Source: a virus
Lineage: Duplodnaviria > Heunggongvirae > Uroviricota > Caudoviricetes
Length of the DNA: 64,000 bases
IMG/VR virus record: IMGVR_UViG_3300042905_002309
Coordinates: 169,278-233,277 of that record
Direction: 5' to 3' (one strand)
The position numbers and the translations under genes were made by a program. Positions 3,114 to 36,973 of this stretch are shown here, piece by piece (position 1 is the first letter of the stretch; every line of letters begins with the position of its first letter). A model generated the notes under the pieces. It made no database searches. It was not told where the DNA came from and saw only the letters and a program-made list of their open reading frames with translations.

Positions 3114-3200
3114 GGTTGTTAACCGGATCGTCTAAATTGGCTAGGACACTTCAATGTATTTGGAGAGACTGTGGGTTCGATTCCCTACCGATTAACAACC
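3114..3200 (+). ncRNA. aberrant tRNA-like element (possible decayed tRNA-Tyr GUA)
   Basis: GGGTTCGATTCCC T-loop; D-arm GTCT/GGAC with a TTGG loop; arm CTTCA-ATGTATT-TGGAG. However, the terminal stem is 13 bp, the T-stem has a bulge, and there is no CCA. Confidence 0.35.
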
Positions 3201-6695: not shown

Positions 6696-7485
6696 ACTAA
6701 TTTTAATAATTTCTATTATAATCTTGGCGAATATTTCATATGGGAAGGGGTTCTGGTTTATTTCAATTCCCGTACATCAGGATAAAATACATCATATTGA
6801 TGATAATGGTAATGTTTATTATGATTCTGATGTCAAAGCTGATCAAAAAAGAAGTGCTGAAATTCAGAGACAAATAGATGCTAAATCTGGTCAATATTAT
6901 GAAGAATTTTTAAAAAATGATAGAAAATGGAAAGCAGAACGGGAAGAAAAAGAAAGAATAAAATTACAAAAACAAGCGGAATATCAAACTAAAAAGAATG
7001 ACTATGATGCGGAATATATTAACATTAATGTCAAATATAACTCAATATTATCTAACGCTGATGTGAATTATAAATCACCTCCAGATGTACTTTTACAATG
7101 CTTATCTGTTAGTAATAAATATGATCAAGAAATAATTAAACTTAAAAATAAATACTATAAACGAATTTCCTTTTTACAGGAACGACATGGCTTGAAGGAA
7201 GGATATTATAATAATGCAAAGGAATTAATGACTAGTAACGACCCCATTATGGTTAAAACTAGAACTAGAATGACAATGGAATATAATATTAAAATTGTAG
7301 AATTAAATAAAGAAATAAAAGATCAAATGTATGAATACGCACAGGTTCGGGATGAAAGAGTAAAAGAAATATTAAGATGGAATAAAAATAATACGTTGCG
7401 TGGTATTGATAAACAAAGAGAATCAAAACTAAAAGCATTAAAAGTTCCTGAACTGGAACGTCAATATAGTAATGATTATAATTAA
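6688..7485 (+). CDS. secreted K/N/Y/E-rich coiled-coil-like protein with an N-terminal signal peptide
   Basis: MNKLILIISIIILANISYG signal-like N-terminus. The gene is visibly more AT-rich than its neighbours. Confidence 0.6.
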   Translation: MNKLILIISIIILANISYGKGFWFISIPVHQDKIHHIDDNGNVYYDSDVKADQKRSAEIQRQIDAKSGQYYEEFLKNDRKWKAEREEKERIKLQKQAEYQTKKNDYDAEYININVKYNSILSNADVNYKSPPDVLLQCLSVSNKYDQEIIKLKNKYYKRISFLQERHGLKEGYYNNAKELMTSNDPIMVKTRTRMTMEYNIKIVELNKEIKDQMYEYAQVRDERVKEILRWNKNNTLRGIDKQRESKLKALKVPELERQYSNDYN

Positions 7486-8433: not shown

Positions 8434-8517
8434 ATTAAGGATAGACGTTTGGTAGTGTAATGGGAAACACGCACCTTTTATCAAGGTGAATAGCAGGTTC
8501 GATTCCTGCCCTTGGAA
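8434..8517 (+). ncRNA. aberrant tRNA-like element (copy 2; perfect T-arm, anticodon-arm-like CACCT-TTTATCA-AGGTG)
   Basis: GCAGG-TTCGATT-CCTGC T-arm and two alternative D-arms. The acceptor pairing is poor or shifted. 84 nt. Confidence 0.35.
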
Positions 8518-12167: not shown

Positions 12168-12224
12168 TAAAAAACTTGAGTATTTCATAGAGTAGTTGAC
12201 AATGGAACGGCTGTAGTGCATACT
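12168..12224 (+). promoter_or_regulatory. conserved early-type promoter cassette (TTGACA 12196-12201, N17, CATACT 12219-12224)
   Basis: Read directly from sequence. Leader is TATTAACAGTTGAACG. Confidence 0.75.
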
Positions 12225-12548: not shown

Positions 12549-12623
12549 GCTCCTAAAACTTTTATGGTGAAGTACCAGACTTTTAATCTGGTTAATTCAG
12601 TTCAAGTCTGAATAGGAGTACCA
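12549..12623 (+). tRNA. tRNA-Lys (anticodon UUU), CCA encoded
   Basis: Hand-folded cloverleaf. Acceptor GCTCCTA/TAGGAGT (G1-U72), D-arm ACTT-TTATGGTG-AAGT, anticodon arm CCAGA-CTTTTAA-TCTGG, T-arm TTCAG-TTCAAGT-CTGAA, then A-CCA. Confidence 0.85.
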
Positions 12624-13171: not shown

Positions 13172-13254
13172 GGCTACGTGGTGGAATTGGCATACACAAG
13201 GGACTTAAAATCCCTCGCTTCGGCATAAGGGTTCGACTCCCTTCGTAGCCACCA
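13172..13254 (+). tRNA. tRNA-Leu (anticodon UAA), type II, CCA encoded
   Basis: Acceptor GGCTACG/CGTAGCC, anticodon arm AGGGA-CTTAAAA-TCCCT, long variable arm CGCTTCGGCAT, T-arm AAGGG-TTCGACT-CCCTT, then A-CCA. Confidence 0.9.
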
Positions 13255-13260
13255 ATTTAT

Positions 13261-13380
13261 GGGAACGACCTATATGATAGATATGTTTAGTACTGGACAT
13301 ATTAATTCTATAATGGTAGATAGGTGAAAAGGGGTAGATATACCCAATATGTGGAAGTTCGACTCTTCCCGTTCCTGCCA
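13261..13380 (+). ncRNA. oversized (120 nt) tRNA-like gene of unknown identity
   Basis: Canonical acceptor GGGAACG/CGTTCCT, T-arm GGAAG-TTCGACT-CTTCC and G-CCA end. The 80-nt body contains a duplicated D-arm-like segment and a GGGTA-GATA-TACCC hairpin. No standard anticodon arm was found by hand. Confidence 0.4.
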
Positions 13381-13386: not shown

Positions 13387-13444
13387 AAAGAAAACTTGAG
13401 CATTTTAAAACAATATTGACAATTTAATCAGAAAGGTGTAAAGT
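13387..13444 (+). promoter_or_regulatory. early-type promoter (TTGACA 13416-13421, N17, TAAAGT 13439-13444)
   Basis: Read directly from sequence. Confidence 0.65.
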
Positions 13445-14513: not shown

Positions 14514-14777
14514 ATGTTCCTATTAATTCTAGTTATAGGTGTACTAACTGTATCACAGTATTACATGTGGGGTAAGATTCTTCGTTATGAAGGCGAAATG
14601 CGTATCATGAAGGAAGTTACCTTAAAGTTTATCAAGCGTTATTACAATCAAGATAGTGAATTGTATAAACGTGCTGACCAGATTGAGCGTACAAAGTGGA
14701 GTCCTGATATCATTGAAAACCACATGGCAGAAGGTAATCCACCCGCTGAAACATTGCTTCCTTTCGTAGGGCGATAA
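14514..14777 (+). CDS. small membrane-anchored protein
   Basis: N-terminal TM segment FLLILVIGVLTV. Confidence 0.55.
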   Translation: MFLLILVIGVLTVSQYYMWGKILRYEGEMRIMKEVTLKFIKRYYNQDSELYKRADQIERTKWSPDIIENHMAEGNPPAETLLPFVGR

Positions 14778-14832
14778 GAAAACATTAAAATTTCACGCAG
14801 TAGTTGACAAGTCACAGGGGATAGTTCATACT
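14776..14832 (+). promoter_or_regulatory. conserved early-type promoter cassette (TTGACA 14804-14809, N17, CATACT 14827-14832)
   Basis: Read directly from sequence. Drives rIIA-rIIB. Confidence 0.75.
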
Positions 14833-14884
14833 TATTGAAGTTGAGTGCATAAGGCATCAAACGTAAAACAAGGTGAGATTAGTT

Positions 14885-23080: not shown

Positions 23081-23164
23081 GCACCCGTAGTCGGACTAGG
23101 TTTCTACCCTATGTAACCGTAATTGGAACTGCAACTACAGGTTCGAATCCTGTCGGGTGTACCA
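23081..23164 (+). ncRNA. atypical 84-nt tRNA-like gene (possible UCU anticodon loop), CCA encoded
   Basis: Acceptor GCACCCG/CGGGTGT (G1-U72), T-arm ACAGG-TTCGAAT-CCTGT, then A-CCA. The only 7-nt-loop hairpin is (C)TAGG-TTTCTAC-CCTA(T). The D region and variable region cannot be folded canonically by hand. Confidence 0.4.
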
Positions 23165-24176: not shown

Positions 24177-25310
24177 ATGAGTGAGAGAAAATTAGCAAGT
24201 ATTCAGAAAATTATTGATGTTAAAGCCATTGACGGTGCTGATAAAATCGAACTAGCCTTTGTCAAGGGTTGGCAAGTTGTTGTGGCTAAGAAGGATGGAT
24301 TCAAGATTGGTGATTTAGTCGTCTATATCGAAATTGATTCACTAGTACCTGATCGTCCTGAATTTGAATTCCTTCGTGAGCGTAAGTTCCGTGTAAGAAC
24401 TATCAAGCTTCGTAAACAGCTTTCACAAGGTCTTATCGTTCCTATTGATACTATTTCTAATTTACGTCATGCTCTAATTTCATTAAAGACTATTGAAGAG
24501 GGTGATGATGTTACAGCACTTATGGGTATCACTAAGTATGATCCACAGGCACAGGAAGAGAAAGCTCTTAGCGTCCCTAAACACCAGAACAAGGTGCTTA
24601 GATACCTTATGAACTTCAAAGCCTTTAGAACGGTTTACTTAAAATTAAATCAAAAGGAGAACGGTTGGCCTGTCGGTGTTGTCTCTAAGACTGATGAAGA
24701 GAATATCCAGAATATGTACAATGTCATTTCTGAGAACTTTGAGAAGAGTTTTTATGTGACTGAGAAGTTAGAGGGACAGAGTGCGACATTCTATACCACG
24801 TTTGAGAAACATTGGGGTTTCAATCGTAAGGTGTTTGGTGTATGCTCTCGTAATATCAAACTTGAGAAACCTGACAACTCTAAGTACTGGCAGACCGCAA
24901 AGCGATATGATCTTGAGAAGGTTTTAAAGTCTTACAAGTGCCGTGTTGCTATTCAGGGTGAGCAAGTAGGTGAGGGTATTCAGGGTAATATCTATAAACT
25001 TACTGGTGTTGATCTATTTGTATTCAACGTGTATATGGATGGTAAACGTTTAGGTGTAGATGAATTGAAGGCATTTTGTGATAAGCATGGTTTAACGACT
25101 GTGCCTGTACTTGATGCAAACTTCGTTCCTTCTAAAGAAATAGTTTGCAATACCAAGGATGTTATTGTACATTACTTACTTGGATACAGTAATGGGACAT
25201 CTGTGTTATACAAGACTATGCGTGAGGGTGTTGTTTTACGATTAAATGAGAATCCTAGCGTATCAGTCAAGGCACGTAGTCCTGATTACTTAATTAAACA
25301 TGAGGAATAA
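24177..25310 (+). CDS. RNA ligase, DraRnl/Rnl5-like (N-terminal OB-like domain plus nucleotidyltransferase)
   Basis: N-terminus KLASIQKIIDVKAIDGADKIELAFVKGWQVVVAKKDGFKIGDLVVYIEIDS is typical of DRB0094-type ligases. Motif I candidate is EKLEG. Confidence 0.65.
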   Translation: MSERKLASIQKIIDVKAIDGADKIELAFVKGWQVVVAKKDGFKIGDLVVYIEIDSLVPDRPEFEFLRERKFRVRTIKLRKQLSQGLIVPIDTISNLRHALISLKTIEEGDDVTALMGITKYDPQAQEEKALSVPKHQNKVLRYLMNFKAFRTVYLKLNQKENGWPVGVVSKTDEENIQNMYNVISENFEKSFYVTEKLEGQSATFYTTFEKHWGFNRKVFGVCSRNIKLEKPDNSKYWQTAKRYDLEKVLKSYKCRVAIQGEQVGEGIQGNIYKLTGVDLFVFNVYMDGKRLGVDELKAFCDKHGLTTVPVLDANFVPSKEIVCNTKDVIVHYLLGYSNGTSVLYKTMREGVVLRLNENPSVSVKARSPDYLIKHEE

Positions 25311-25313
25311 ATT

Positions 25314-25466
25314 ATGAACAAATCAATGACAATAGCATCTTATGTGATTTTTTACCTAGCATTCGGTTTAATAGGATTCGGAACTAGTGGAGATGATGGA
25401 TCAAAATTCCGAGATATCGCAATCTTTTTAATGGGATGGGCTATCTTTATCAGACAAGGGGAATAA
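25314..25466 (+). CDS. small membrane protein (50 aa)
   Basis: SD GAGGA upstream. Two hydrophobic segments. Confidence 0.4.
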   Translation: MNKSMTIASYVIFYLAFGLIGFGTSGDDGSKFRDIAIFLMGWAIFIRQGE

Positions 25467-25561
25467 TATGAAACATACAGCAATAATCTTAATACTATTA
25501 ATTATCTTTGTAATGTTGTTCACTTCTGGTTGTGGATTCATAGTTCTATTTGGTATTTAAT

Positions 25562-25834
25562 ATGATAACTGCATACGGTGAAGATATCGCCTTTGCTATG
25601 TGCGGTGGGTGTCCTGTGCCGAAAGTGGCAAGGGATGCCTTCTGTCATATGTATAAAGGTAATGATGCTATGGAATATGGTAATCTATGTTTATTGCGTG
25701 AGATTGAACGTAGACAAAACGGTATATTAAACTTGTCACCATTCCAACCATGTGATAGTGAAGAAGCTAAAGCATCTTTGGAACGTCGAAGAGAACGTAT
25801 TATAGGTAAAGAATGGCAGGAATATTATGGTTAA
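25562..25834 (+). CDS. hypothetical protein
   Basis: ATG 25562. Confidence 0.5.
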   Translation: MITAYGEDIAFAMCGGCPVPKVARDAFCHMYKGNDAMEYGNLCLLREIERRQNGILNLSPFQPCDSEEAKASLERRRERIIGKEWQEYYG

Positions 25835-26357
25835 AATAAAATATGTTGAGGGTGATCTTACTGATCCTATTTCACTTGTTAGTGATAATGGAATATTAGT
25901 TAGTACGCTTATTATGCATATAGTGAACGATCAAGGTATGATGGGTTCTGGCGTTGCTAGAGCTTTGTATGAAAAATGGCCTAAAGTTCGTAGTGAATAC
26001 ATTCGATGGTTTAATGAACCGAATACTTTTGATGTTGATACAGCTTTCCGACTAGGTAAGACACAATTTGTGACTGTATCCCCACCATCACTATATGATA
26101 TCGTGGTAGCTAATATGGTAGGTCAACACATGGTTGGTGCTGATGAACATGGTAATCCACCTATCCGCTATGATGCCTTGGATAGTTGTTTAACGCATGT
26201 TAAGAATTATGCAGAAAGATTTGAATTTTCTGTACATATGCCTTATAAAATGGGTGCAGATCGTGCCAGAGGTGATTGGAACAAAATTGTACAGATGGTT
26301 GAAGATATCCTTTGCAAAAATGATATCGCTGTGGTAGTCTATAAGTTGAAAGGTTAA
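25827..26357 (+). CDS. macro-domain protein (ADP-ribose / Appr-1''-p processing family)
   Basis: YVEGDLT...IMHIVNDQGMMGSGVARAL...MPYKMGADRARGDW pattern. Confidence 0.6.
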   Translation: MVKIKYVEGDLTDPISLVSDNGILVSTLIMHIVNDQGMMGSGVARALYEKWPKVRSEYIRWFNEPNTFDVDTAFRLGKTQFVTVSPPSLYDIVVANMVGQHMVGADEHGNPPIRYDALDSCLTHVKNYAERFEFSVHMPYKMGADRARGDWNKIVQMVEDILCKNDIAVVVYKLKG

Positions 26358-26358
26358 T

Positions 26359-26526
26359 ATGAAAATAAAAACGTTATGGATTATCAAAGAGAAGGAATCT
26401 GGTGAACATAGATGGTATACGTTCACAAGACAACAAGCCAGAGATACTATTAAGGATTATAGATACTGGAATGGATTTAGTGCTAAACAATTAGTCGTTA
26501 AGCAAGGAAGGGTATTTGAAGTATGA
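26359..26526 (+). CDS. hypothetical 55-aa protein
   Basis: Start is 1 nt after the upstream stop. ATGA overlap downstream. Confidence 0.45.
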   Translation: MKIKTLWIIKEKESGEHRWYTFTRQQARDTIKDYRYWNGFSAKQLVVKQGRVFEV

Positions 26527-26924
26527 ATATTGAAAATGCAGAAAAACGTAAGCAAGGTCGCCCAAAAGATAATACATTTCCTACATTTGTTACATGTCGT
26601 GTGACAGGGAAACAAAGTAAAATTAATGTAACACTTTTGCGTAGACAACTCCAAAAGAACGGTAAAACTATTGAAGAGTATTTGTCAAATTATGTGAGCC
26701 GAGAGGGTAAACACATTGAGGAAGATGCCTCAGATACTACACAAGTACTTCCCCCGATCAATCCAGACCTTGGTAAGGCTATTGAAGTAGAGGAACGAGT
26801 ATACGATGAAGATACGTTAGAAAAACGTAAAGTCATTATCAAAGATTTGTGGAATAAAATTGCACAACAGCCTCCTGAATATTATCAGGAACAATTTAAG
26901 ATTATAGGTTATCGTGGAAAATAA
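26523..26924 (+). CDS. hypothetical protein with an N-terminal GRP (AT-hook-like) motif
   Basis: 133-aa ORF. Confidence 0.55.
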   Translation: MNIENAEKRKQGRPKDNTFPTFVTCRVTGKQSKINVTLLRRQLQKNGKTIEEYLSNYVSREGKHIEEDASDTTQVLPPINPDLGKAIEVEERVYDEDTLEKRKVIIKDLWNKIAQQPPEYYQEQFKIIGYRGK

Positions 26925-27099
26925 AGTAAGAACCGAACTATTATTACAAACTGCTAACATTAGAACGTTATGCAATGAAGTGTTGGATGATTATAACGAC
27001 AAGAAATTAACACTTGTCGAAATGGATGCCCGTATGGTAGTGTTAAGTAAGAAATTAACCGAGTTGTCAGAAAGACTTGAAAATGAAAAATTCGGATAA
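26914..27099 (+). CDS. hypothetical protein (GTG start)
   Basis: 61-aa ORF with a weak SD. Confidence 0.4.
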   Translation: MENKVRTELLLQTANIRTLCNEVLDDYNDKKLTLVEMDARMVVLSKKLTELSERLENEKFG

Positions 27100-27163
27100 A
27101 GCTATTATTATCATTGTAATCCTTTTACTATTTGGTGTAAAATGTTGCTAATGTGCGTGTTAT

Positions 27164-27436
27164 ATGAAACTATTACAAAGTGTCCTACTATCGATTGTGT
27201 TACTTTATTCTGGTGGGTGTGCGGGATATCCATTTGATAACGCTGACCATGAAGCATTGATTTTAATGTATAGTAGGCAACATGCCATTGAAGAACAAGT
27301 GAGACATCAGGCAGAGATTAGTGAAGCGGTAAAAAACTTTCAAATTCAAGCAATTAAAGGTGGCTTTGCTTATTGGGATGTGGTAGACTATTCAGGACGA
27401 GTGGAATTTAAATGGGTTGGACAGAAAAGGAAATAA
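27164..27436 (+). CDS. putative lipoprotein/secreted protein
   Basis: Signal-like N-terminus ending LLYSGGC. Confidence 0.5.
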   Translation: MKLLQSVLLSIVLLYSGGCAGYPFDNADHEALILMYSRQHAIEEQVRHQAEISEAVKNFQIQAIKGGFAYWDVVDYSGRVEFKWVGQKRK

Positions 27437-27437
27437 T

Positions 27438-27902
27438 ATGATTAATTTACAATTAGATATACCTGCATTGGAACGATTGATTGGCGATGATAAAGAATTC
27501 GAATTGAAGTTGAAGGATGGAGTCATTGCGAATTTCGTTGACAAACATCTTAGAGTTCTTTTGAAGGATGAACTTATCAAGGCTAAGATTGAGGAAATCA
27601 CCAAGAAGATTAATGGTGAGGCTGATAAGATCGTTGCCAAGGAATTTGGTAACATGTCTAGTACTGGTTATGGCTATGCAATCAAATTGAATACGGAGTT
27701 TGAGAAGCATCTTAAAAGTCTTATTCGTTCACATGTTGATACTATGGTTTACACTATTATTGATGATAAGGTGAAAGAGTCTATTGCTAGTATTGATATT
27801 GGTGCGTATGCAGACCGTATTATGACGCTTCGTATGAACGAATTGTGTAAAGATGCTATCAACACTAAGGCTAAAGCGTTGATTGCCAATGCTTTGAAGT
27901 GA
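27438..27902 (+). CDS. hypothetical protein
   Basis: ATG follows AAGGAAA. Confidence 0.6.
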   Translation: MINLQLDIPALERLIGDDKEFELKLKDGVIANFVDKHLRVLLKDELIKAKIEEITKKINGEADKIVAKEFGNMSSTGYGYAIKLNTEFEKHLKSLIRSHVDTMVYTIIDDKVKESIASIDIGAYADRIMTLRMNELCKDAINTKAKALIANALK

Positions 27903-27911
27903 GGTATATAT

Positions 27912-28055
27912 ATGGACGGTTCAGCATTCAGCGGTATGGGTGAAGTTATTGCAACGATGATGATAGCGTGTGTAATATTTGTCCCATTAGGTATATGGAA
28001 ATGTGTTGACATTATCATCTGGTTATGGCATCATTTTCACATAGTAATTACTTGA
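27912..28055 (+). CDS. small membrane protein (47 aa)
   Basis: SD GAGGT upstream. Hydrophobic core. Confidence 0.4.
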   Translation: MDGSAFSGMGEVIATMMIACVIFVPLGIWKCVDIIIWLWHHFHIVIT

Positions 28056-28062
28056 GGTAAAT

Positions 28063-28362
28063 ATGAAAACTAAAATAACTAAAATTAGTGCTGTTGATAA
28101 TCCGCTTGTACCTACTGCAAGTGTTGAACAGTATGAGTGTGGACATCTTAATGACTTGTCACCGTTTGATGGGTATTGGGTTACAGGGAAATTGGTTAAA
28201 CCAATTGTCGTAGGCGAATCTATCCTATTGGAGCGTGATTGTCGAAATGGTGTTAAAGTTGATGGAATGTTTGTTTCTTCAACGGTTAAAAAAACTGGTA
28301 AAAATTATGGTAAGTTGTTTGTATTTACAGATAATTCTATCTATAGAGTTGAGGAAGTATGA
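28063..28362 (+). CDS. hypothetical protein
   Basis: SD GAGGT upstream. Confidence 0.6.
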   Translation: MKTKITKISAVDNPLVPTASVEQYECGHLNDLSPFDGYWVTGKLVKPIVVGESILLERDCRNGVKVDGMFVSSTVKKTGKNYGKLFVFTDNSIYRVEEV

Positions 28363-28871
28363 AAATTGTACGTGACTTTCTAAGAGAGGTTTCGCTTGAA
28401 GAGTTCTGTGATGAAAATGATATTGAAATTATCATCCATGAACGTCCTAATGGTAGAGCGACAGGAAACGGCAACTTGACTCGCTATTATGGTGGATTAC
28501 AGAATAATATTAGTACACTCTGTGAAATTATTCGTCCTTCTATATTGAGTGGTGTTGTGGCTAATGGTAATACTGAGGAAGACGTTTTGAATCAAATAGT
28601 AGAAACTATTAGTGAAGAATCTATAACATTTGAAGCGATGAAAAAAGATCGTAGGATTTATAAGGTTCCTCGCTTAATTTCAGTGTGGACAGTTGATAAG
28701 AAATCAATTGCACCACCTGAAGAAAAAACTCATTATAAACCTTCAATTAGTAAAGAAAAATTTGAGAGAAGTTGTAAAAAGTGTGGATATCTAACTAAGA
28801 ATGTTAGTCACGGATATTATAAATGTCATTGCGGTGAATGTCCCGCTATAACTAAAAAGATACCAAAATGA
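28359..28871 (+). CDS. hypothetical protein with a C-terminal zinc ribbon
   Basis: CKKCG...CHCGEC motifs. Confidence 0.6.
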   Translation: MKIVRDFLREVSLEEFCDENDIEIIIHERPNGRATGNGNLTRYYGGLQNNISTLCEIIRPSILSGVVANGNTEEDVLNQIVETISEESITFEAMKKDRRIYKVPRLISVWTVDKKSIAPPEEKTHYKPSISKEKFERSCKKCGYLTKNVSHGYYKCHCGECPAITKKIPK

Positions 28872-29329
28872 AAAAGAAGCCTGAAATGATTATAATGATG
28901 GGCTTACCCGCTTGTGGTAAGAACACTTGGATTAAAAATAACAAGAAGTCTCACGTTGTAGTTGAACTTGATTGGATTCGTAGACATATCTTTGGACATC
29001 AGTATCATAAAGAAGCTGAACCATTTATCATCGGTATGGCGAAAAGTATTACCAGAATGCTTTTATCACAAGGCAAAGATGTGATTATAAATTCAACTGG
29101 TTTGGTGGCACAAATTCGTAATGAGTGGGTGAATATGGCTGATGAATACGAATATACTACCAAAATTGTTTTTATTGACATACCCATTATGAAGTGCTAT
29201 TCTCGTAATAGTAAGCGAGTAGAAGATAAGGTTCCAGAAGAAGTGATTGAACGAATGGGTAACATCTTACAACGACCTAATATCTCTTGTATCGATAAAG
29301 CCGATAAAATTTTGATTGCGGAAGATTAA
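28868..29329 (+). CDS. polynucleotide 5'-kinase-like P-loop protein (Pnk kinase domain only)
   Basis: Walker A GLPACGKNTW. YSRNSKR...VPEEVIERM resembles the remembered T4 Pnkp kinase domain ([20 protein letters not shown]). Confidence 0.6.
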   Translation: MKKKPEMIIMMGLPACGKNTWIKNNKKSHVVVELDWIRRHIFGHQYHKEAEPFIIGMAKSITRMLLSQGKDVIINSTGLVAQIRNEWVNMADEYEYTTKIVFIDIPIMKCYSRNSKRVEDKVPEEVIERMGNILQRPNISCIDKADKILIAED

Positions 29330-29331
29330 TT

Positions 29332-30450
29332 ATGAAGAAAATGACTGTTGAAGATTTGCGAAAGACAGGATACATCATCTTTGAATGTATCAGTGGTTCA
29401 CATGCTTATGGAACCAATATTGAAACCTCTGATACCGATATCAGGGGTATCTATATTTTTCCTGAAAGTGAAAAGACTTTATTTGACGATCACCAATTGG
29501 AAGTCGCTGATGATAAACAGGATATCAAGTTTTTTGAACTACAGAAGTTCATGCAACTTTGCGCTGAAAATAATCCCAATGTGTTAGAGCTATTGTTTAC
29601 TCCCGCTGAGTGCATCATTTATAAGGATGCCCGAATGGATGTATTACTTACCAATAATGAATTGTTTGTAAGTCAGAAGTCTTACCATAGTTTTAATGGA
29701 TACGCTTATGCACAGATTCAAAAGGCAAAGGGTAAGAATAAGAAGGTGAATAATCCGAAGCCTGTAGAGCGTCCTGTCAAGGAAGATTACTGCTTTGTAA
29801 TTCCAGAGGGAAGGATATACAATCTTCCACCTGCTAGACCTATTAAACTTACTGAAATTACTAGTACTTATGGTGGCAGTACCGAAGTAGTTCCTTTTGA
29901 TTTGAGTAAATTTAATTGTGCTAGACTTGAACAAACTGCACATATCTATAGACTTTATTACTACGGTGATGAAGCTAAAGGTGTGTTTCGTGGTGATGAA
30001 AATCTTGTGCCAGAGTCTATCCCATTGGAAGACGAAGTTACTAAGTTTTATGGCTTACTCATTTGGAATGAAGATGCCTATAAGCGTGATGTAGCTGAAT
30101 GGAAGTCTTATTGGGAGTGGAAGAATAATCGTAATGATGCACGTTGGGTGGATCAGGAAAAGGGATTGCTTGACTACGATCAAAAGAATATGATGCATTG
30201 CATGAGACTAATGTTAAGTGGAAAGAACATCTTGACAAATGGTGTGCCACTTGTTCGATTTGATGGTGAACAGTTGCAGTATCTACGTGACATTCGTGCA
30301 GGTAAGTTTGAATATAATTTTATTATGAACGCTGTTGAAGAAAAGATGAAGGAATTGGAAGTATTAAAGGATACTACTAAGCTTCGATATGCTGTTGATA
30401 ATTACGCAATTAGCGAGATTTACAAAAAGTTGATTTATTACACACTTTAA
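29332..30450 (+). CDS. RlaP-type nucleotidyltransferase (RNA-repair-associated Pol-beta superfamily)
   Basis: GSHAYGTNIETSDTDIRGIY matches the GSxxYG...SDxDxxG signature remembered for PF10127-like proteins. Confidence 0.6.
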   Translation: MKKMTVEDLRKTGYIIFECISGSHAYGTNIETSDTDIRGIYIFPESEKTLFDDHQLEVADDKQDIKFFELQKFMQLCAENNPNVLELLFTPAECIIYKDARMDVLLTNNELFVSQKSYHSFNGYAYAQIQKAKGKNKKVNNPKPVERPVKEDYCFVIPEGRIYNLPPARPIKLTEITSTYGGSTEVVPFDLSKFNCARLEQTAHIYRLYYYGDEAKGVFRGDENLVPESIPLEDEVTKFYGLLIWNEDAYKRDVAEWKSYWEWKNNRNDARWVDQEKGLLDYDQKNMMHCMRLMLSGKNILTNGVPLVRFDGEQLQYLRDIRAGKFEYNFIMNAVEEKMKELEVLKDTTKLRYAVDNYAISEIYKKLIYYTL

Positions 30451-30452
30451 TG

Positions 30453-30481
30453 TTGACTATGCTATCTTTGTTTGGTATCGT
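30453..30481 (+). promoter_or_regulatory. promoter (TTGACT 30453-30458, N17, TG-extended TATCGT 30476-30481)
   Basis: Read directly from sequence. The track TTG start at 30472 lies inside it. Confidence 0.55.
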
Positions 30482-30525
30482 ATTTAGCAGTGGTGGAAAT
30501 AATAACAAACAAAAGGGATAAAAGA

Positions 30526-31281
30526 ATGAAGAAAATTATTGTAATGGTGTTGGCAGTGTTGATGTGTGTCTCGTATGCTGATGCTAGAGGTTCAAGTTCT
30601 AGTTCACGTTCATCTGGATCACGCTCTTATAGTAGTAAGAGTTCTACCTCTAGTAAATCATATAACTCTTCTAGTAGGTCTGCAACACCTAGTAAGTCTG
30701 TCAGAACCCCTAGCATTACTCCAAGGTCTACACCCGCACCATTGACGATGCCAAAATATAACTCATCTTCAAGTAAAATTACTCCTAAATATACTCCTGC
30801 ACCTATTAAAACCTCTTCCCGTAGTTGGTTTAATAAGTCTACTCCAAGTCACTCAACAAGTCGAATGGTTCCTAATTATCATCGATCATATTCCTATGAC
30901 CGTCCTTCCTATACCACACATCATTCATCAGGGTTTGGAATGACTGATTATTTGATGTTGTATATGATTTTTGGCAATCATAATAACAACTCTACAAAAA
31001 GTTATGTAAATAACGCATATCCAGTTGCACCTACACTTGTAACAACTCGTTCAAATGTGGTAACGACCGTTCCTGCATATCTATGTAATACACAGTATCT
31101 TGGAACAGTTGAAGCCGATGAAAGAGTCAATGGAACTTATACCGTGTCTGATGAGACAGCAAGAAAAGTTGAACAAAGTAAAAATAGTGTTATGCTTTTC
31201 AACGTGGGTATGCTAGTATTGATCGTGTTGGCAGTATTTGGAGTGATTGGTTGGATTGTTTATATTAAAACGAAAGGATAA
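30526..31281 (+). CDS. Ser/Thr/Pro-rich secreted protein with signal peptide and C-terminal TM anchor
   Basis: MKKIIVMVLAVLMCVSYADA signal, low-complexity SSSSSRSSGSRSYSSKSS..., C-terminal LFNVGMLVLIVLAVFGVIGWIVYI. Confidence 0.65.
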   Translation: MKKIIVMVLAVLMCVSYADARGSSSSSRSSGSRSYSSKSSTSSKSYNSSSRSATPSKSVRTPSITPRSTPAPLTMPKYNSSSSKITPKYTPAPIKTSSRSWFNKSTPSHSTSRMVPNYHRSYSYDRPSYTTHHSSGFGMTDYLMLYMIFGNHNNNSTKSYVNNAYPVAPTLVTTRSNVVTTVPAYLCNTQYLGTVEADERVNGTYTVSDETARKVEQSKNSVMLFNVGMLVLIVLAVFGVIGWIVYIKTKG

Positions 31282-31378
31282 ACATGCGCTAGATAATAAA
31301 GATAAAGTGTGTGAATATGTTGGATAAAGTGTTGATAGTAAATGTATTAAATAAATGTTAGTAAAAGAAAGAATAAAA

Positions 31379-32650
31379 ATGAAAACAAAGTTGATTGTGT
31401 TGGGATTGTTGACGTTGGTGGTAGTGTGTATTTGTGCGTTGTGGGGTCAGGCTGTTGAACCTGTCATTTCTACGAAGTTGGCTCTTGCCAATGTGAATGG
31501 AACTGATGGCGATTGGCAGACCTTGAACGTGTTTACAGCTAATAAGTTCTTGATTAAGACTGTATTAGTGGCTTTGCTTGGCATCGTGGCAATGTTTATG
31601 TTCCTTCCTAAGAATACTGGTAAGAACGTGAGTATTGTTATTGGTATGCTTATCATTGGTTTGAATACTACTGGTTGTATGCGACCTTACGATATTCCTG
31701 AATACAGGGATGTTAAGCCTAATGAGACAGCTTTCGTCATTCCTTTGGATATTGACGGAAACGGTCAAGTGAAGTTCAACTCTGCATCATTCTTGGAAAC
31801 GAAAAAGGTTGCATCTAAGCGTATTCAGGTTATGCATCGTTGGGTACAGGAAGGTCGCTTGATCGCTGATGGTAAGTATATTCCGACTTCTGTATTGATT
31901 ATCGTTGATCGTCAACCTGTTACAGAGGAATGGGTTGCAAAAGAAGGTCAGGTAAAGGGTAAAGATAATGCTATCTGGACTGAAAGTATGGATTCAGTTG
32001 GATTCAGCATGGGTTGGACTTGTACCGCTTATATCAAGGAAGAGGATGCTTCTAATTTCTTGTACTTCTACCCTAGTTCTGGTTTGAAAGCTGTTATGAA
32101 TAGTGAAATTCGTGGAAGGGTTCAAATGACTTCTGCTAACTTCTCTGCTCAGTATAAGCTTGACGATTTGCGTAATAAGAAGAATGAAATGGCAAAGAAG
32201 GTTCAGGAAGATGTTATTGAGTTCTTCAAGACTCGTGGTATCACTATTACAATGGTTGGTATGTTCGGTGGTATGACCTATGAAAATCCTAAGATTCAGG
32301 ATGCTATCGATCAGACCTTTGTAAGTCAGCAGGAAAAGGTTAATGCGTCAGCTTTCTTGGATGCACAGAAGGATAAGAATGCTCGTATTAATAGCGAGGC
32401 TACGGCACTTGCAGAAGCGTCACGTTCAAAAGCCAAGGGTGAAGCTGATGGTATTGAGTTTATCAATGTCGCACTTGCCAAGGCTAATAACAACCCTCAG
32501 TTGATTGAGTTGCGTCAAATTGAGGTTGAGAAGGCACGTATCGACAAGTGGAATGGCACGTATCCTAGCACCGTTGCAGGAGCAGGGGCGCAGACATGGG
32601 TAGGATTGTCCCAAAAGGATGAAGTAGCACCTGTAATGCCTAAGAAATAA
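31379..32650 (+). CDS. membrane protein, SPFH/band-7-like
   Basis: Two or three N-terminal TM segments. Ala/Lys/Glu-rich C-terminal helix (ALAEASRSKAKGEADG...) as in HflK/prohibitin-type proteins. Assignment is by eye only. Confidence 0.5.
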   Translation: MKTKLIVLGLLTLVVVCICALWGQAVEPVISTKLALANVNGTDGDWQTLNVFTANKFLIKTVLVALLGIVAMFMFLPKNTGKNVSIVIGMLIIGLNTTGCMRPYDIPEYRDVKPNETAFVIPLDIDGNGQVKFNSASFLETKKVASKRIQVMHRWVQEGRLIADGKYIPTSVLIIVDRQPVTEEWVAKEGQVKGKDNAIWTESMDSVGFSMGWTCTAYIKEEDASNFLYFYPSSGLKAVMNSEIRGRVQMTSANFSAQYKLDDLRNKKNEMAKKVQEDVIEFFKTRGITITMVGMFGGMTYENPKIQDAIDQTFVSQQEKVNASAFLDAQKDKNARINSEATALAEASRSKAKGEADGIEFINVALAKANNNPQLIELRQIEVEKARIDKWNGTYPSTVAGAGAQTWVGLSQKDEVAPVMPKK

Positions 32651-32671
32651 CTTTAACCAGAAGTTAGAAGT

Positions 32672-32702
32672 CCCCTGCCCGAAAGGGTGGTGGATTTTTT
32701 GT
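32672..32702 (+). terminator. rho-independent terminator
   Basis: CCCCTGCCC-GAAA-GGGTGGTGG hairpin followed by ATTTTTTG. Confidence 0.65.
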
Positions 32703-32730
32703 TGACAGTATCACGTTTTTATGAGAGACT
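32702..32730 (+). promoter_or_regulatory. promoter, leaderless type (TTGACA 32702-32707, N17, GAGACT 32725-32730; ATG at 32737)
   Basis: Read directly from sequence. Six nt lie between the -10 box and the ATG, with no SD. Confidence 0.6.
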
Positions 32731-32736
32731 ATAAAC

Positions 32737-33072
32737 ATGAAGAAGCAGTATAAGAAATCTTGTAAAGAAGTATTGATTAAATATACTGAACAGGGTTCAG
32801 ATGCAATTAAACAGGTGATAGTTCACCACACTAGTAAGAGTAAGGCTATATTGGCATGGAAGAAAAGTAATCCCAATGCTCGATTAGTACCTATGCCATC
32901 AAGTGGTGAATATTCTGTAGAGGCTTATACTATAGTAAAATGTTGTAGAACGTGTAAACATTTTCAAGAATATTGCAATCTATATCCAGACTATCCTTCA
33001 AGAGGACAATGTTTAAAAACCACCAACATGATGTTATGGTTTAACGAATGTAAGGATTTTGAGGCTAAATGA
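32737..33072 (+). CDS. hypothetical Cys-containing protein
   Basis: 111-aa ORF starting at the predicted transcript 5' end. Confidence 0.6.
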   Translation: MKKQYKKSCKEVLIKYTEQGSDAIKQVIVHHTSKSKAILAWKKSNPNARLVPMPSSGEYSVEAYTIVKCCRTCKHFQEYCNLYPDYPSRGQCLKTTNMMLWFNECKDFEAK

Positions 33073-33206
33073 AACCATATAGTGATAAAATTAATCCTAA
33101 AGGTATGTCAGGTCGTAGGAAGTCAAAGAATACTGCACATCGTAGACGATCATTAAGAGTTGATAAGAAGTCAGCAAGACAGGCAGGAAAGAAAAATGAA
33201 TATTAA
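33069..33206 (+). CDS. small highly basic protein (45 aa)
   Basis: ATGA overlap with the upstream gene. R/K-rich. Confidence 0.35.
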   Translation: MKPYSDKINPKGMSGRRKSKNTAHRRRSLRVDKKSARQAGKKNEY

Positions 33207-33663
33207 TCTAAAATATCTAAGATACATTTTAATACATAAGTACTACGTTTTTAAAGCCTGTCTAAAATATGGATTGGTTTGGCGAGGGCTTGTACACGAT
33301 TTATCAAAATTGCGTCCATCAGAGTTTATACCTTATCGTGAATACTTTTATGGAGATTTAAGCAATACTGATGAATGTGCAACAAACTTTGATTATGCTT
33401 GGAAGTCTCACCAGAAATGTAATAAACATCATCCCCAATATTGGCTATTGAAGAATGATGATGGTAAGCTACGCCCCTTAGAAATGCCATTGGTATACCG
33501 TCAGGAGATGGTAGCAGATTGGAGAGGTGCAGGGATGGCTATCAATAGTAAGGATGAGGTTCTAGCGTGGTATACTAAAAATAGGTTGAAAATGATTATT
33601 GCGCCTGTTACCAGAGCATGGGTTGAAAATGAAATTGGATATAAAGAAGGAAAGGTAATATGA
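33196..33663 (+). CDS. hypothetical protein (HDLSK motif)
   Basis: ATG 33196 follows GGAAAG. Confidence 0.55.
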   Translation: MNINLKYLRYILIHKYYVFKACLKYGLVWRGLVHDLSKLRPSEFIPYREYFYGDLSNTDECATNFDYAWKSHQKCNKHHPQYWLLKNDDGKLRPLEMPLVYRQEMVADWRGAGMAINSKDEVLAWYTKNRLKMIIAPVTRAWVENEIGYKEGKVI

Positions 33664-34046
33664 AAACTATAAAGGGTTGGAAAGTAATTAGAGTAAAAGA
33701 TAGAAGGTCGGCAGTTACGACAATGGGTTGCACAGAGCAAGGAAAGTATATTTTACATTACCCTGTAGGTGTTACAGTTAAACCTAAAGTAGCGGGTACT
33801 AAGATATTATTTTTCAAAAAATTAGTACACGCCGAAATCTTTCGAGATATAAATAGTAAAGATTATAACGAACTTTTTATTGTTCCTTGTATTGCACAAG
33901 GGGCTTCAAAAATTAAAATAGTTTCTAATTTAATGCAAATTGATGATTTTTGGAAGCTTAAAAAATCCAAAAAAGGTGTTGGTTGCTTTAGTTGGATGGC
34001 TCCAAGTGGAACATATGGCGCAGATTCAATTAAATGTTTGAAATAA
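33660..34046 (+). CDS. hypothetical protein
   Basis: ATGA overlap with the upstream gene. Confidence 0.55.
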   Translation: MKTIKGWKVIRVKDRRSAVTTMGCTEQGKYILHYPVGVTVKPKVAGTKILFFKKLVHAEIFRDINSKDYNELFIVPCIAQGASKIKIVSNLMQIDDFWKLKKSKKGVGCFSWMAPSGTYGADSIKCLK

Positions 34047-34057
34047 ATTTGTTTAGG

Positions 34058-34087
34058 TTGTGGTATTGTTTTATCAGCTTGTAGACT
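34058..34087 (+). promoter_or_regulatory. weak promoter candidate (TTGTGG, N18, TAGACT)
   Basis: Read directly from sequence. Lies upstream of the GIY-YIG gene. Confidence 0.3.
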
Positions 34088-34112
34088 AAATAATTGTAGG
34101 AGTAATACAATT

Positions 34113-34808
34113 ATGTACATTTACAAGACAACTAACAAATTAAATGGTAAAATTTATATCGGACTTTCAAAGTTTGCGCCACAAGAAAATCCAGAGTATT
34201 TAGGTTCTGGTTATATCTTAAAGAAAGCTATTGAATGTTATGGTGCAGAGAATTTTGTAAAAGTTATTTTAGAAGAATGTTCTACACAGGAACAGCTATT
34301 AGAACGAGAAAGATACTGGATAGCCACATTAAAAGCTAATGACCGCAATGTGGGTTATAATATTTGTGAGGGTGGAACATGGGGTGACAATTGGACTAAT
34401 CATCCTAATAAAGAAGAATGGCGCAAAAAACTTAGTGAATCTAATCGTGGCAAGAAGAATGGTAATTATGGTAATCGATGGACTGATGAACAGAAAAGAA
34501 AAGCATCAGAAAGAGTAAAATTAAATCCTATAGGAATTGATCCTAAAACTGGTGAACACTATACAAAGAATCCTGAAACTAGAAAAAAATTATCAGATAC
34601 GAAATTAGGTTTAAATAATCCACACTCAAATTTATGGAAATTAGTATCGCCCATAGGTGAAATTTTTATAATAGAAGGTGGAATCAAAAAGAAAATTAAA
34701 GAATGTGGTTCAGACTATCAACAATTTAAACACGCTTTAATATTACCTGACGGTGGACGAAGAAATCTTAAAGGTTGGACACTATATAAATTAGAAAAAC
34801 CAATATAA
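34113..34808 (+). CDS. GIY-YIG homing endonuclease
   Basis: IYKTTNKLNGKIYIGLS...YLGSG...RERYWI plus NUMOD-like repeats (SESNRGKKNGNYG). Confidence 0.85.
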   Translation: MYIYKTTNKLNGKIYIGLSKFAPQENPEYLGSGYILKKAIECYGAENFVKVILEECSTQEQLLERERYWIATLKANDRNVGYNICEGGTWGDNWTNHPNKEEWRKKLSESNRGKKNGNYGNRWTDEQKRKASERVKLNPIGIDPKTGEHYTKNPETRKKLSDTKLGLNNPHSNLWKLVSPIGEIFIIEGGIKKKIKECGSDYQQFKHALILPDGGRRNLKGWTLYKLEKPI

Positions 34809-34811
34809 TTG

Positions 34812-34840
34812 TTGACAATAGCTACGAAATAATGTAGATT
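34812..34840 (+). promoter_or_regulatory. leaderless-type promoter (TTGACA 34812-34817, N17, TAGATT 34835-34840, ATTACAC, ATG 34848)
   Basis: Read directly from sequence. Same -10-to-ATG architecture as the promoters at 48830 and 37797. Confidence 0.65.
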
Positions 34841-34847
34841 ATTACAC

Positions 34848-36038
34848 ATGAAAGAGATTAAAGGACAATTTAATACTGCGAAGGTGTTTGCATCAACAGT
34901 CGAACCTTCTTGTGAAGCACAAATTTTAGAGTTATGTAATGAAGAATGGGTATATAACTCTAAAATACGCATTATGGCAGACTGTCATTCTGGTAAGGGA
35001 TGTGTTATTGGTACTACTATGACAATTATTGATAAAATTGTTCCTAATTTAACCGGGGTTGATATCGGATGTGGGGTTCTTGTGACTAAATTTGATACGC
35101 TTTCTTTAACCTTGGAACAGGTTGACTCAATTGTTAAGCGTAACATCCCTATGGGTATGAATTCTCGTCAGTCTATGGTGGTTGACTTTACTCCTGAATT
35201 GGATAAGGCTATCTGTAAGGAAGCTTTTGATCCTCGTCAGGTTTGTAAGTCCATTGGTTCGTTGGGTGGTGGAAACCACTTTATCGAAATTGATAAGGAC
35301 GATGAGGGTAATTTTTATTTAGTCGTACATACGGGTTCTCGTAACTTTGGTAAGCGTGTTGCTGAACATTACCAGAACAAGGCTGTTGATTATCATTCCA
35401 AGAAGGGTTTGAAGTCTACTCAAGAAATCATTAACGAGTTGAAAGCCAAGGGGTTACAACACATGATTCCTGCTGAATTGAAGAAACGTAATGCCGTGGC
35501 TAACGAAGCTTTGACCTATTTGGAAGGTGACTTGTTTGATTGTTACTTAAACGATATGCATATTGCTCAGAAGATGGCAAGTGAGAACCGTAAGGCTATT
35601 GCAGATATCTTGTGCCGTACAATGCATATTAAGCCTACTGAACAATTTGAAACGATTCATAACTACATTGATGTTCATGCTATGATTTTGCGTAAAGGTG
35701 CTATCTCTGCGAAAGCGGGTGAAGTGTGCTTAATTCCTATCAATATGCGTGATGGTTCGTTAATCTGTGTTGGTAAGGGTAACGAAGATTATAACTATTC
35801 TGCGCCTCATGGTGCAGGTCGTTTAATGTCTCGTAAACAGGCGAAGCGTGAATTGTCTTTGGAAGGGTTCAAGGATACGATGAAGGATATTTATTCATCT
35901 ACGGTGGGTGCGTCTACGTTGGACGAAGCACCTGATGCTTACAAGCCTATTGCTGAAATCTTGGAGAACATTCAGGATACGGTTACGGTGTTGAAGCAGA
36001 TCAAGCCTATTTACAATGTGAAAGCGGAAGAGGAATAA
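34848..36038 (+). CDS. rtcB: RtcB RNA 3'-phosphate/2',3'-cyclic-phosphate ligase
   Basis: GVDIGCG, GGGNHFIE, HTGSRNFG and SAPHGAGR motifs. Confidence 0.92.
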   Translation: MKEIKGQFNTAKVFASTVEPSCEAQILELCNEEWVYNSKIRIMADCHSGKGCVIGTTMTIIDKIVPNLTGVDIGCGVLVTKFDTLSLTLEQVDSIVKRNIPMGMNSRQSMVVDFTPELDKAICKEAFDPRQVCKSIGSLGGGNHFIEIDKDDEGNFYLVVHTGSRNFGKRVAEHYQNKAVDYHSKKGLKSTQEIINELKAKGLQHMIPAELKKRNAVANEALTYLEGDLFDCYLNDMHIAQKMASENRKAIADILCRTMHIKPTEQFETIHNYIDVHAMILRKGAISAKAGEVCLIPINMRDGSLICVGKGNEDYNYSAPHGAGRLMSRKQAKRELSLEGFKDTMKDIYSSTVGASTLDEAPDAYKPIAEILENIQDTVTVLKQIKPIYNVKAEEE

Positions 36039-36041
36039 ATA

Positions 36042-36164
36042 ATGAAGGTACTACTATGTCTAGTTTGTATTACATTTATTACTGGATGTTCGACATACAA
36101 TAATAGAAAATACATACCAGAAGCGGGTAGTACCGAATTATTTCCAACCCATAGGATAAATTAA
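36042..36164 (+). CDS. small lipoprotein (40 aa)
   Basis: Signal peptide plus lipobox ITGC. Confidence 0.45.
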   Translation: MKVLLCLVCITFITGCSTYNNRKYIPEAGSTELFPTHRIN

Positions 36165-36165
36165 A

Positions 36166-36393
36166 ATGAACGAAGATATTAAACCATTACCATGTCCCTT
36201 TTGTGGCGAGATTCTTACATTTCAAATTGATGAAATGGGTGGGGTGTGGTACGAACATAGTGATCGCAATCCTTATACTGTCTTTACATATAAGACAAAC
36301 TATAATGAAGCAAAGCGTTGTGTGTTGTCACATTTTACCTTAGATGGTGATCCAAAAGCTATTAAACAATGGAATGATCGAATAAAGGATTAA
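36166..36393 (+). CDS. Lar-family-like zinc-ribbon protein
   Basis: PCPFCGE ... AIKQWNDR pattern. Confidence 0.45.
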   Translation: MNEDIKPLPCPFCGEILTFQIDEMGGVWYEHSDRNPYTVFTYKTNYNEAKRCVLSHFTLDGDPKAIKQWNDRIKD

Positions 36394-36394
36394 T

Positions 36395-36973
36395 ATGGAC
36401 ATTCGCAAAGTTAGTAAAATATTGTGTTTAAGTTTACGACATAAACCAGAACTTTTGAAATTGAATATGGATTCCGAAGGTTGGGTTGATGTCAATGAAT
36501 TAATCCGCAGATACAATAATTACTATAAGCCTGACACTTACCTTAATAGGAATTTTCTTGATAAGGTGGTTGAAGAGAACAATAAGAAGCGTTTCGCCTA
36601 TAGTGATGATGGTACAAAGATTCGTGCCTCTCAGGGACATTCGATTAATATTAATTTGAATCTTCCTGAGAGTGTTCCAGAAGATATTTTATATCATGGA
36701 ACAGCTAAACGTTTTCTTAATGGTATCATGAAAGAAGGTTTGAAGAAAATGGAGCGTCAACACGTTCATTTATCTGACAATCTTAAAACAGCTTATTCAG
36801 TAGGTTCACGACATGGAGAACCTATTATTCTTATGGTACATGCGGGTGTAATGCATAAGAATGGGTTTAAGTTTTACAAATCCGAGAATGGGGTATGGTT
36901 GACTGATAATGTTCCGAAACAATATCTTGACTTTGCACCAATAATTGCGTATACTACTGGCTACGGTAAATAA
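36395..36973 (+). CDS. kptA: RNA 2'-phosphotransferase Tpt1/KptA
   Basis: LSLRHKPE...GWV...SQGHS...LYHGT...HVHLS motifs. Confidence 0.88.
   Translation: MDIRKVSKILCLSLRHKPELLKLNMDSEGWVDVNELIRRYNNYYKPDTYLNRNFLDKVVEENNKKRFAYSDDGTKIRASQGHSININLNLPESVPEDILYHGTAKRFLNGIMKEGLKKMERQHVHLSDNLKTAYSVGSRHGEPIILMVHAGVMHKNGFKFYKSENGVWLTDNVPKQYLDFAPIIAYTTGYGK

Follow-up and report, generated by a model that had tools for sequence, protein, structure and literature searches.

A 120-nt tRNA-like element with an intact acceptor/T-arm minihelix and a rearranged body in a jumbo phage

Directly behind a canonical tRNA-Leu gene in a 64,000-nt stretch of a Caudoviricetes genome (IMG/VR record IMGVR_UViG_3300042905_002309, positions 169,278 to 233,277; this whole stretch is hereafter the window), 120 nt begin and end as a tRNA gene does and enclose an oversized body. 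What kind of gene keeps the ends of a tRNA around such an interior? We find that this element is derived from a tRNA, is rearranged and cannot decode, because its anticodon arm has been lost. The reading we prefer, with modest confidence, is that it is the relic of a tRNA(UAA) gene whose body was scrambled once the gene had become redundant, and whose minihelix RNase P probably still cleaves, thereby punctuating the early transcript.

Intact ends and a duplicated interior

The element reads GGGAACG-AC-[83 nt]-GGAAG-UUCGACU-CUUCC-CGUUCCU-G-CCA. Its acceptor is fully paired, G1·U72 being a wobble, and together with the T-arm it gives a 12-bp coaxial helix with a canonical T-loop; a U at -1, a G at +1 and the terminal GCCA complete the processing features present. 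The RCCA 3′ end is a contact of bacterial RNase P, and the GCCA of the element fits it. An initial annotation, made from the letters alone, had recognized the acceptor, T-arm and CCA and placed the element directly after tRNA-Leu; all of these are borne out, with a 6-nt spacer between the two genes. The interior landmarks it listed are likewise where it put them: two near-duplicate D-arm-like segments (CTATATGATAGATA at 13270 and CTATAATGGTAGATA at 13308), an inverted repeat (ACCTAT at 13268-13273 and ATAGGT at 13320-13325, enclosing 46 nt) and a hairpin, GGGTA-GATA-TACCC, at 13332-13345.

When both strands of the window were scanned for a T-arm joined to a 7/7 acceptor stem and an NCCA end, the genes that passed were tRNA-Lys and tRNA-Leu (the only called tRNAs to do so), the element, and an odd gene at 23081. 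tRNA-Tyr (3120-3196) failed this strict scan. No match came from an equivalent scan of 1 Mb of phage DNA shuffled locally, and the resemblance of the element to a tRNA is therefore not due to chance.

The interior is built on a repeat. Element positions 10-47 and 48-85 form a diverged 38-nt tandem duplication (global alignment score 6, compared with -4.9±3.1 for shuffles; p≈0.0005), in which ~37% of aligned positions differ and of which both D-arm-like segments are a part. A third copy of GGTAGATA is also present. The second module holds a good D-arm, CUAU-AAUGGUAG-AUAG, with G18G19 kept (the GG of the D-loop normally docks on the T-loop), followed by a purine linker, GUGAAAAG, and then by the hairpin GGGUA-GAUA-UACCC. 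In the first module the GG is lost, and the module sits in an imperfect palindrome of 21+21 nt. A direct repeat (D1) and a 21-nt inverted repeat (I1) were mapped in the body.

The minimum free energy (MFE) of the whole element is -34.8 kcal/mol (z=-2.5 relative to shuffles), and the value for the interior (positions 8-92) is z=-3.2, with only 0.2% of shuffles folding equally well. The MFE structure contains a 10-bp hairpin at positions 20-43. On refolding, the alternative pairings 8-13/60-65 and 37-43/86-92 come within 4-6 kcal/mol of it, as does, by reading of the letters, 55-61/78-84. The modelled fold is a candidate, which covariation would be needed to fix. Structure of this kind may also arise mechanically, as duplications and palindromes can create pairing.

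No standard model recognizes the element. ARAGORN with default settings called neither a tRNA nor a transfer-messenger RNA (tmRNA) on it, and Rfam, applied at gathering thresholds (29 bits for RF00005) and at E≤10 to a 401-nt slice, gave no match on it to tRNA, tmRNA, ribozyme, Y-RNA or any other family, the mascRNA model included. The body is thus as oversized and non-canonical as the initial annotation had it; an ordinary tRNA called by a covariance model, an outcome which that annotation had entertained, did not appear.

The same annotation had stated that no 5-7-5 anticodon arm could be drawn. One can be drawn, UAGUA-CUGGACA-UAUUA at element positions 28-44, at a frequency that shuffles match; it has a C at position 37, where a canonical anticodon arm has a purine, and competes with the 10-bp hairpin. 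Removing each internal segment of 20-55 nt in turn and rerunning ARAGORN yielded eight deletion variants called as tRNA-Ser(GGA) with a giant variable arm, all of which rely on this arm. Because 37/60 interior shuffles also give calls, and because of C37, we reject the candidate and take the arm as no evidence of an anticodon arm. In its intron mode (-i), ARAGORN left the element uncalled both at default and at -ps90, a setting at which 44% of shuffles get called; at -ps80 it proposed a tRNA-Leu(UAG) whose stem is poor and whose intron has 28 nt, a candidate rejected since 271/300 interior shuffles were called too. No 5-bp stem with anticodon-loop-like flanks closes across any insert in the element. 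The D-like segment at positions 10-25 allows no proper stem, and the well-formed D-arm is displaced 38 nt downstream of where it should be.

The tRNA(UAA) slot in related phages

In IMG/VR we identified 111 normal-size tRNA genes with the acceptor GGGAACG/CGTTCC, mostly of the isotypes Ile(UAU), Phe, Leu(UAA) and Tyr; every UAA and UAU gene in this set ends in CGUUCCU-A, sharing the G1·U72 wobble of the element. The acceptor of the element, GGGAACG/CGUUCCU, is identical to that of the tRNA(UAA) genes L147, L213, L112 and L210. L147 and L213 read GGGAACG-UA-GCCC-AACGGCAGA-GGC-..., and the D-loop of the element, AAUGGUAGA, resembles AACGGCAGA (both AAYGGYAGA-like). Unlike the element, the tRNA(UAA) genes of this family are class-I-shaped, 71-76 nt long and carry a CUUAAAA anticodon loop and A73; the element has 120 nt, G73 and a duplicated body, and neither the anticodon loop nor the 3′ strand of its stem is present.

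Two relatives (~80% nucleotide identity), recovered through the neighbouring proteins from Logan samples SRR26784438 and SRR26784071, carry tRNA(UAA) genes in the very slot of the element. The first, L098, comes from the same sample as L094 and has ~79% nucleotide identity to the window overall, with a flanking 82-amino-acid gene that is 92% identical. Its gene order is tRNA-Lys, the 82-amino-acid gene, an HNH-type open reading frame (ORF) and a normal 76-nt tRNA(UAA), whose 5′ part is GGAACAC-UA-GCCC-AACGGCAGA-GGC-A-CGAAA-CUUAAAA-UUUCG and whose 3′ part is AAAGU-AUGGG-UUCGAAU-CCCUU-GUGUUCU-A-CCA; the D-arm is identical to those of L147 and L213. The CCA of this tRNA abuts the promoter block that also follows the element, and the gene ends exactly at the element's end point. 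The class II tRNA-Leu of the window is absent from L098. Where the window has that gene, L098 has its HNH-type ORF (6872-7336), a position that suggests homing-endonuclease-linked cassette exchange.

The second relative is represented by two non-overlapping contigs of one sample (Logan SRR26784438). L101 ends with an HNH ORF (207 amino acids) followed by GCGGGAU-UG-GCGAAAUGGCAGACGC-A-UCAGA-CU|CAGUAGGGUC..., and L095 starts with ...GUAGUAAG|UAAAA-UCUGA-(variable arm)-AUUGG-UUCAAGU-CCGAU-AUCCCGC-A-CCA and continues into the same promoter block. Across the two contigs (L101 2888-2953 plus L095 1-113), the acceptor matches at 7/7 and the anticodon stem at 5/5 pairs, and ARAGORN -i reads the composite as a class II tRNA-Leu(UAA) interrupted after U33 by an intron of at least 95 nt. 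A group I intron in bacterial tRNA-Leu(UAA) is classical. The intron is probably of group I, as its motifs suggest: a U·G hairpin resembling P1 (GACU/GGUC), a G at its end and the S-like AAGGCAUAGUCC. Rfam found no group I match on the L101 and L095 ends, which are fragments too short for it and lack the intron middle.

One slot thus holds three alternative cassettes, each of which gives a UAA anticodon; in the window this anticodon is supplied by the upstream class II gene and not by the element. Cassettes in this slot seem to turn over in association with homing endonucleases. Comparison with relatives, which the initial annotation had proposed as a check, found their loci intact and the window's copy to be the rearranged one, and for this reason a decaying or exapted gene is the option we favour.

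No close DNA homologue of the element was found in INPHARED or in GTDB genomes, and its 23-nt T-arm/acceptor string occurs in no bacterial or archaeal genome of the GTDB collection. IMG/VR contained no exact match to its 3′ end and no relative of the window's rIIA gene or promoter motif, and neither the annotated phages of INPHARED nor IMG/VR contained a relative of the window phage. A pattern scan of metagenomes returned 70 oversized GGGAACG genes, none related to the element; many of them look like intron-bearing tRNAs of other organisms. Among the cluster members, P0125 and P0126 contained nothing relevant, and P0132 was discarded as a clustering artefact, a bacterial lipase. Over the stretch 3452-23625, all seven compared contigs (up to 20 kb each, from at least six JGI and Logan metagenome samples) match the window without substitution, one 99.99% match differing by a single gap. 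Given this identity and a longest contig of 249,720 nt among those carrying the window's proteins, the window phage is a clonal, widely sampled jumbo phage.

The element closes a transcription unit that runs, between two promoter blocks, through an ORF, tRNA-Lys, two ORFs and tRNA-Leu (Table 1). The promoter motif consists of a conserved AAAACYTGAGYATTT followed by TTGACA-17-TAnnnT, and no terminator is present between the promoters at 12171-12224 and 13391-13444. In its 5′ half, the class II tRNA-Leu shares 97.5% identity with its counterpart in Aeromonas phage TSW001, where nothing element-like follows the tRNA-Leu. RNA-repair genes are densely set in the window (24177-41041 plus 61980-63455), and RtcB, Tpt1 and the CCA-adding enzyme are all encoded, as the initial annotation had noted. 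The non-coding block before the CCA-adding-enzyme gene (61836-61951) is 90.6% identical to L081 4374-4488, and the coding DNA of the L081 phage is only ~70% identical to that of the window phage. Separately, a ~90-nt repeat with 85% identity links 1181-1270 of the window to a copy upstream of rIIA, at 14777-14870.

Table 1. Positions of the element, its parts and other features in the window
Feature	Position	Strand	Remarks
tRNA-like element	13261..13380	+	120 nt; no ARAGORN or Rfam call
Acceptor 5′ strand, GGGAACG	13261..13267	+	7/7 pairs with 13370-13376
Repeat module 1	13270..13307	+	element positions 10-47; degenerate D-like segment and 5′ arm/loop of a long imperfect hairpin
Repeat module 2	13308..13345	+	element positions 48-85; D-arm-like segment, purine linker, hairpin
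T-arm, GGAAG-UUCGACU-CUUCC	13353..13369	+	5/5 pairs; T-loop canonical
Acceptor 3′ strand, CGUUCCU	13370-13376	+	
Discriminator G73	13377	+	
Encoded CCA	13378-13380	+	
Spacer AUUUAU	13255..13260	+	6 nt, from tRNA-Leu CCA to element
Class II tRNA-Leu(UAA), canonical	13172..13254	+	ARAGORN; Rfam tRNA 58 bits
tRNA-Lys(UUU)	12549..12623	+	shares the element's transcription unit; ARAGORN, Rfam
Early-type promoter block, AAAACTTGAGTATTT with TTGACA-17-CATACT	12171..12224	+	starts the unit that the element ends
Next promoter block	13391..13444	+	begins 10 nt after the element's CCA; conserved in L098 and L095
tRNA-like gene	8441-8515	+	loop UUUAUCA (UAU), good T-arm; Rfam tRNA 39.4 bits, model positions 6-65 only
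Second non-canonical tRNA-like gene	23081-23164	+	32.2 bits, Rfam tRNA, local scan
RNA ligase	24177		
P-loop kinase	28868		
RlaP	29332		
GIY-YIG homing endonuclease	34113		directly before RtcB
RtcB	34848		
Tpt1	36395		
ATP-dependent DNA ligase	37797		
Metallophosphoesterase	40301		
CCA-adding enzyme	61980-63455		

Relic, functional RNA or spliced gene

We propose that the slot, just upstream of the conserved early promoter, once contained a tRNA(UAA) gene from the phage family GGGAACG...CGUUCCU. The class II tRNA-Leu(UAA) directly upstream would have made this older gene redundant; a 38-nt tandem duplication of its D-arm/anticodon-arm block would have scrambled the body, with loss of the anticodon loop and of the anticodon stem's 3′ strand. 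The remaining acceptor/T-arm/GCCA would constitute a minimal module for the tRNA end-processing enzymes, RNase P and the CCA enzyme. An acceptor/T-arm minihelix with an RCCA end would suffice for RNase P, as in the tRNA punctuation of mitochondria and in mascRNA. Like such substrates, the element places its minihelix at a transcript boundary, and cleavage at its 5′ end is predicted: RNase P most likely excises it from the polycistronic early transcript. Directly observed are the anatomy, the misfit with every tRNA model, the duplication, the occupancy of the slot and the family acceptor; the order of events, the cleavage and its role we infer. A cut 6 nt after the tRNA-Leu CCA would leave tRNA-Leu a short 3′ trailer and would part the unit from the next one, and because the unit has no terminator, the cut may well serve as punctuation. 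In E. coli, RNase P is reported to separate polycistronic tRNA transcripts (PMC2190699). Because the repeat modules have diverged so far and yet all 12 helix pairs are intact, there is a hint that the minihelix is under constraint, although the same pattern could reflect an inexact or recent rearrangement.

Several observations weigh against the relic as just described. The element has G73 where the family has A73. Its interior is no more similar to the L098, L095 and L101 genes than shuffles are (local alignment), so that the case for homology is made by acceptor, D-loop and position. No orthologue of the scrambled form was found, the compared contigs being without substitution, and the perfect minihelix could simply mean that the rearrangement is recent. 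Finally, interior structure above chance (z=-3.2) fits a selected RNA better than neutral decay.

This last point bears on the strongest competing explanation, to which we give perhaps half the weight of the relic: that the element yields a small tRNA-like RNA which does not decode but has its own function, as a regulator or as a decoy or sponge for factors that bind the tRNA elbow or the 3′ end, in the manner of T4 RNA C. In that case the function would reside in the scrambled body. In addition to the structured interior, the G18G19 of the module 2 D-arm could dock on the intact T-loop, and the window phage carries a large toolkit for tRNA repair and CCA addition. The comparison with T4 is close in architecture. 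The role of RNA C, or species 1 RNA, of T4 is unknown (PMC3014915). Like its gene rnaC (with the neighbouring RNA D), the element is a small RNA gene that directly follows a tRNA where a tRNA cluster ends, and rnaC too has a canonical T-arm (CCGGG-UUCGAAU-CCCGG), paired acceptor-like ends and an oversized, hairpin-rich body of 139 nt. The T4 cluster also carries a homing endonuclease gene, segB. Unlike the element, however, rnaC has two U·U mismatches in its acceptor and no encoded CCA in the annotated span, and it is conserved across hundreds of T4-like phages (751 phage records matched by blastn, the homologues mostly at least 95% identical), whereas the form of the element comes from a single clonal phage. 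In 50,697 phage records, a distant blastn search with the element returned no T4-like phage, and the element has no sequence similarity to rnaC or to any annotated phage. Conservation of its body is not seen, both relatives holding an ordinary or interrupted tRNA(UAA) in the slot; nor is there a match to an Rfam family or an identified target or partner.

A broader version of the functional explanation draws on oversized minihelix genes, unannotated, that make up ~4% of the tRNA-like genes in 1 Mb of phage contigs. It would make the element a selected RNA of a widespread class in phage tRNA clusters, with T4 RNA C as its prototype; the elbow and CCA end, both intact, would during infection engage tRNA-binding host factors of defence or processing, or else the repair and CCA enzymes that the phage itself encodes. 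We regard this as speculative, and as slightly less probable than the functional explanation in its general form.

That the element is a purely inert young pseudogene, neither processed nor selected, seems unlikely to us. A scrambled body next to an intact tRNA-Leu(UAA), cassette turnover among the relatives and HNH genes nearby are what such a pseudogene would leave, but the 12 helix pairs, T-loop and CCA have stayed intact despite the divergence of the modules, and any transcript through the unit would be a good predicted RNase P substrate, whether selected or not.

Still less probable is a pre-tRNA interrupted by an intron or insertion and spliced into a working tRNA, by an endonuclease with RtcB or by RNA ligase with Tpt1. 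The idea has precedents at hand: the slot gene of the sister phage is an interrupted tRNA-Leu(UAA), and short inserts occur in the same anticodon loop of other phages. Among tRNA-Leu(UAA) genes with the same exons, L103 463-549 (= L106) is uninterrupted, L102 2870-3012 (= L107) has a 52-nt insert and L104/L105 a 47-nt insert; these inserts follow CUU in the anticodon loop, and each forms a hairpin with a 7-bp stem, at a length well below that of any group I intron. The 11-mer UGGUAGAUAGG is common to the start of the L104 insert and element positions 54-64, a marginal likeness (p≈0.02, local alignment), and the window encodes RtcB, Tpt1, kinase and ligase. Like these interrupted genes, the element is oversized and missed by default annotation: ARAGORN overlooks both the L102 and the L104 type at default settings. 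Unlike the element, they give a perfect cloverleaf without the insert and score as tRNAs. As positive controls, L102, L104 and the L101+L095 composite are all called by ARAGORN -i at default, where it is silent on the element, and the Rfam tRNA model tolerates the 52-56-nt insert of L102 (40 bits) while giving the element no match. No single excision produces a cloverleaf beyond shuffle level, the Ser(GGA) artefact being all that deletions yield, and no stem closes across an insert. Rfam Intron_gpI has no match on the element, whose interior of 85 nt compares with roughly 200 nt or more for a group I core (P3-P9). A partial scan of the window's ORFs revealed no splicing endonuclease among those covered. 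Of the origins that the initial annotation had offered, an insertion-laden tRNA-derived gene and a decaying gene are the better supported ones, and splicing through RtcB and Tpt1, which it had thought coherent, is the part left unsupported.

That the element is a chance resemblance, a mini-tmRNA or the 3′ end of a host tRNA copied in the way of an attP site is effectively refuted. Copies of the T-arm, acceptor 3′ strand and CCA are frequent in attP cores, and a weak Rfam 'tmRNA_permuted' match (E=0.56) spans the tRNA-Leu/element junction, but we judge that match a junction artefact, a perfect 5′ acceptor strand lies exactly 6 nt past the preceding CCA, the shuffle expectation is 0, the 23-nt string is in no genome of the collection, ARAGORN finds no tmRNA and the tmRNA signature G3·U70 is absent, pair 3-70 being G-C.

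Other oversized genes and the significance of the element

The window contains further odd tRNA-like genes. That at 23081-23164 reads GCACCCG-UA-GUCGG-A-CUAGG-UUUCUAC-CCUAU in its 5′ part and, after a variable region of ~22 nt, ACAGG-UUCGAAU-CCUGU-CGGGUGU-A-CCA in its 3′ part; its D-arm is almost absent, its anticodon loop contains UCU, and it is immediately preceded by a strong hairpin with a T-tract. It was missed by ARAGORN and by the whole-window Rfam scan. In the gene at 8441-8515, the best partner of the 3′ acceptor strand CCUUGGA is AUUAAGG, which lies 12 nt farther upstream than expected, and no CCA is encoded.

Beyond the window, a strict minihelix scan of 111 IMG/VR loci (L108-L218, 1.0 Mb) yielded genes that fall by length into 590 (68-94 nt), 25 (95-134 nt) and 38 (135-199 nt), where local shuffles gave 0. 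Three consecutive genes of 120-127 nt, with normal D-arms and ~50-nt inserts, lie at L176 3880-4283. Tyrosine-type genes of ~125 nt occur in IMG/VR and metagenome sequences (L003 7884-8006, L008 1816-1936 and L035), in large phage tRNA arrays without another tRNA-Tyr; they have the acceptor GGGAACG, a normal D-arm and, between it and a CUGUAAA (GUA) anticodon loop, an insert of ~53 nt that contains a covarying hairpin; a bulged U is conserved in their T-stem. The IMG/VR loci L122, L139, L153, L165, L169, L171 and L192 carry a conserved family of tRNA-like genes, ~89 nt long, GGGAACGUUCGAUUUUCAAAUUGCGAAG...GGGGG-UUCAACU-CCCCC-CGUUCCC-A-CCA, that ARAGORN leaves uncalled. We found no description of the short tRNA-Leu(UAA) inserts in the literature, and nothing specific there on short phage tRNA introns or oversized tRNA-like phage RNAs.

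The element belongs to a kind already known, the phage pseudo-tRNA or tRNA-like stable RNA genes, of which it is a further member, and it may have been exapted as a processing signal. It is a clear example of the way in which the decoding body of a phage tRNA gene can be lost while a minimal processing module is kept, and it shows why annotation pipelines overlook such genes. This by-catch, namely tRNA-Leu(UAA) genes with short inserts and the unannotated oversized minihelix genes, may interest a wider readership than the element itself. Should the 120-nt RNA prove both stable and functional, the question of what the T4-type tRNA-like stable RNAs do, now 50 years old, could be approached from a second, independent side. 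The slot, a hot spot with HNH genes, gives a concrete system in which to study tRNA cassette turnover driven by homing endonucleases: three related jumbo phages have arrived there at three tRNA(UAA) solutions, a plain gene, an intron-interrupted gene, and a new class II gene beside the scrambled old one.

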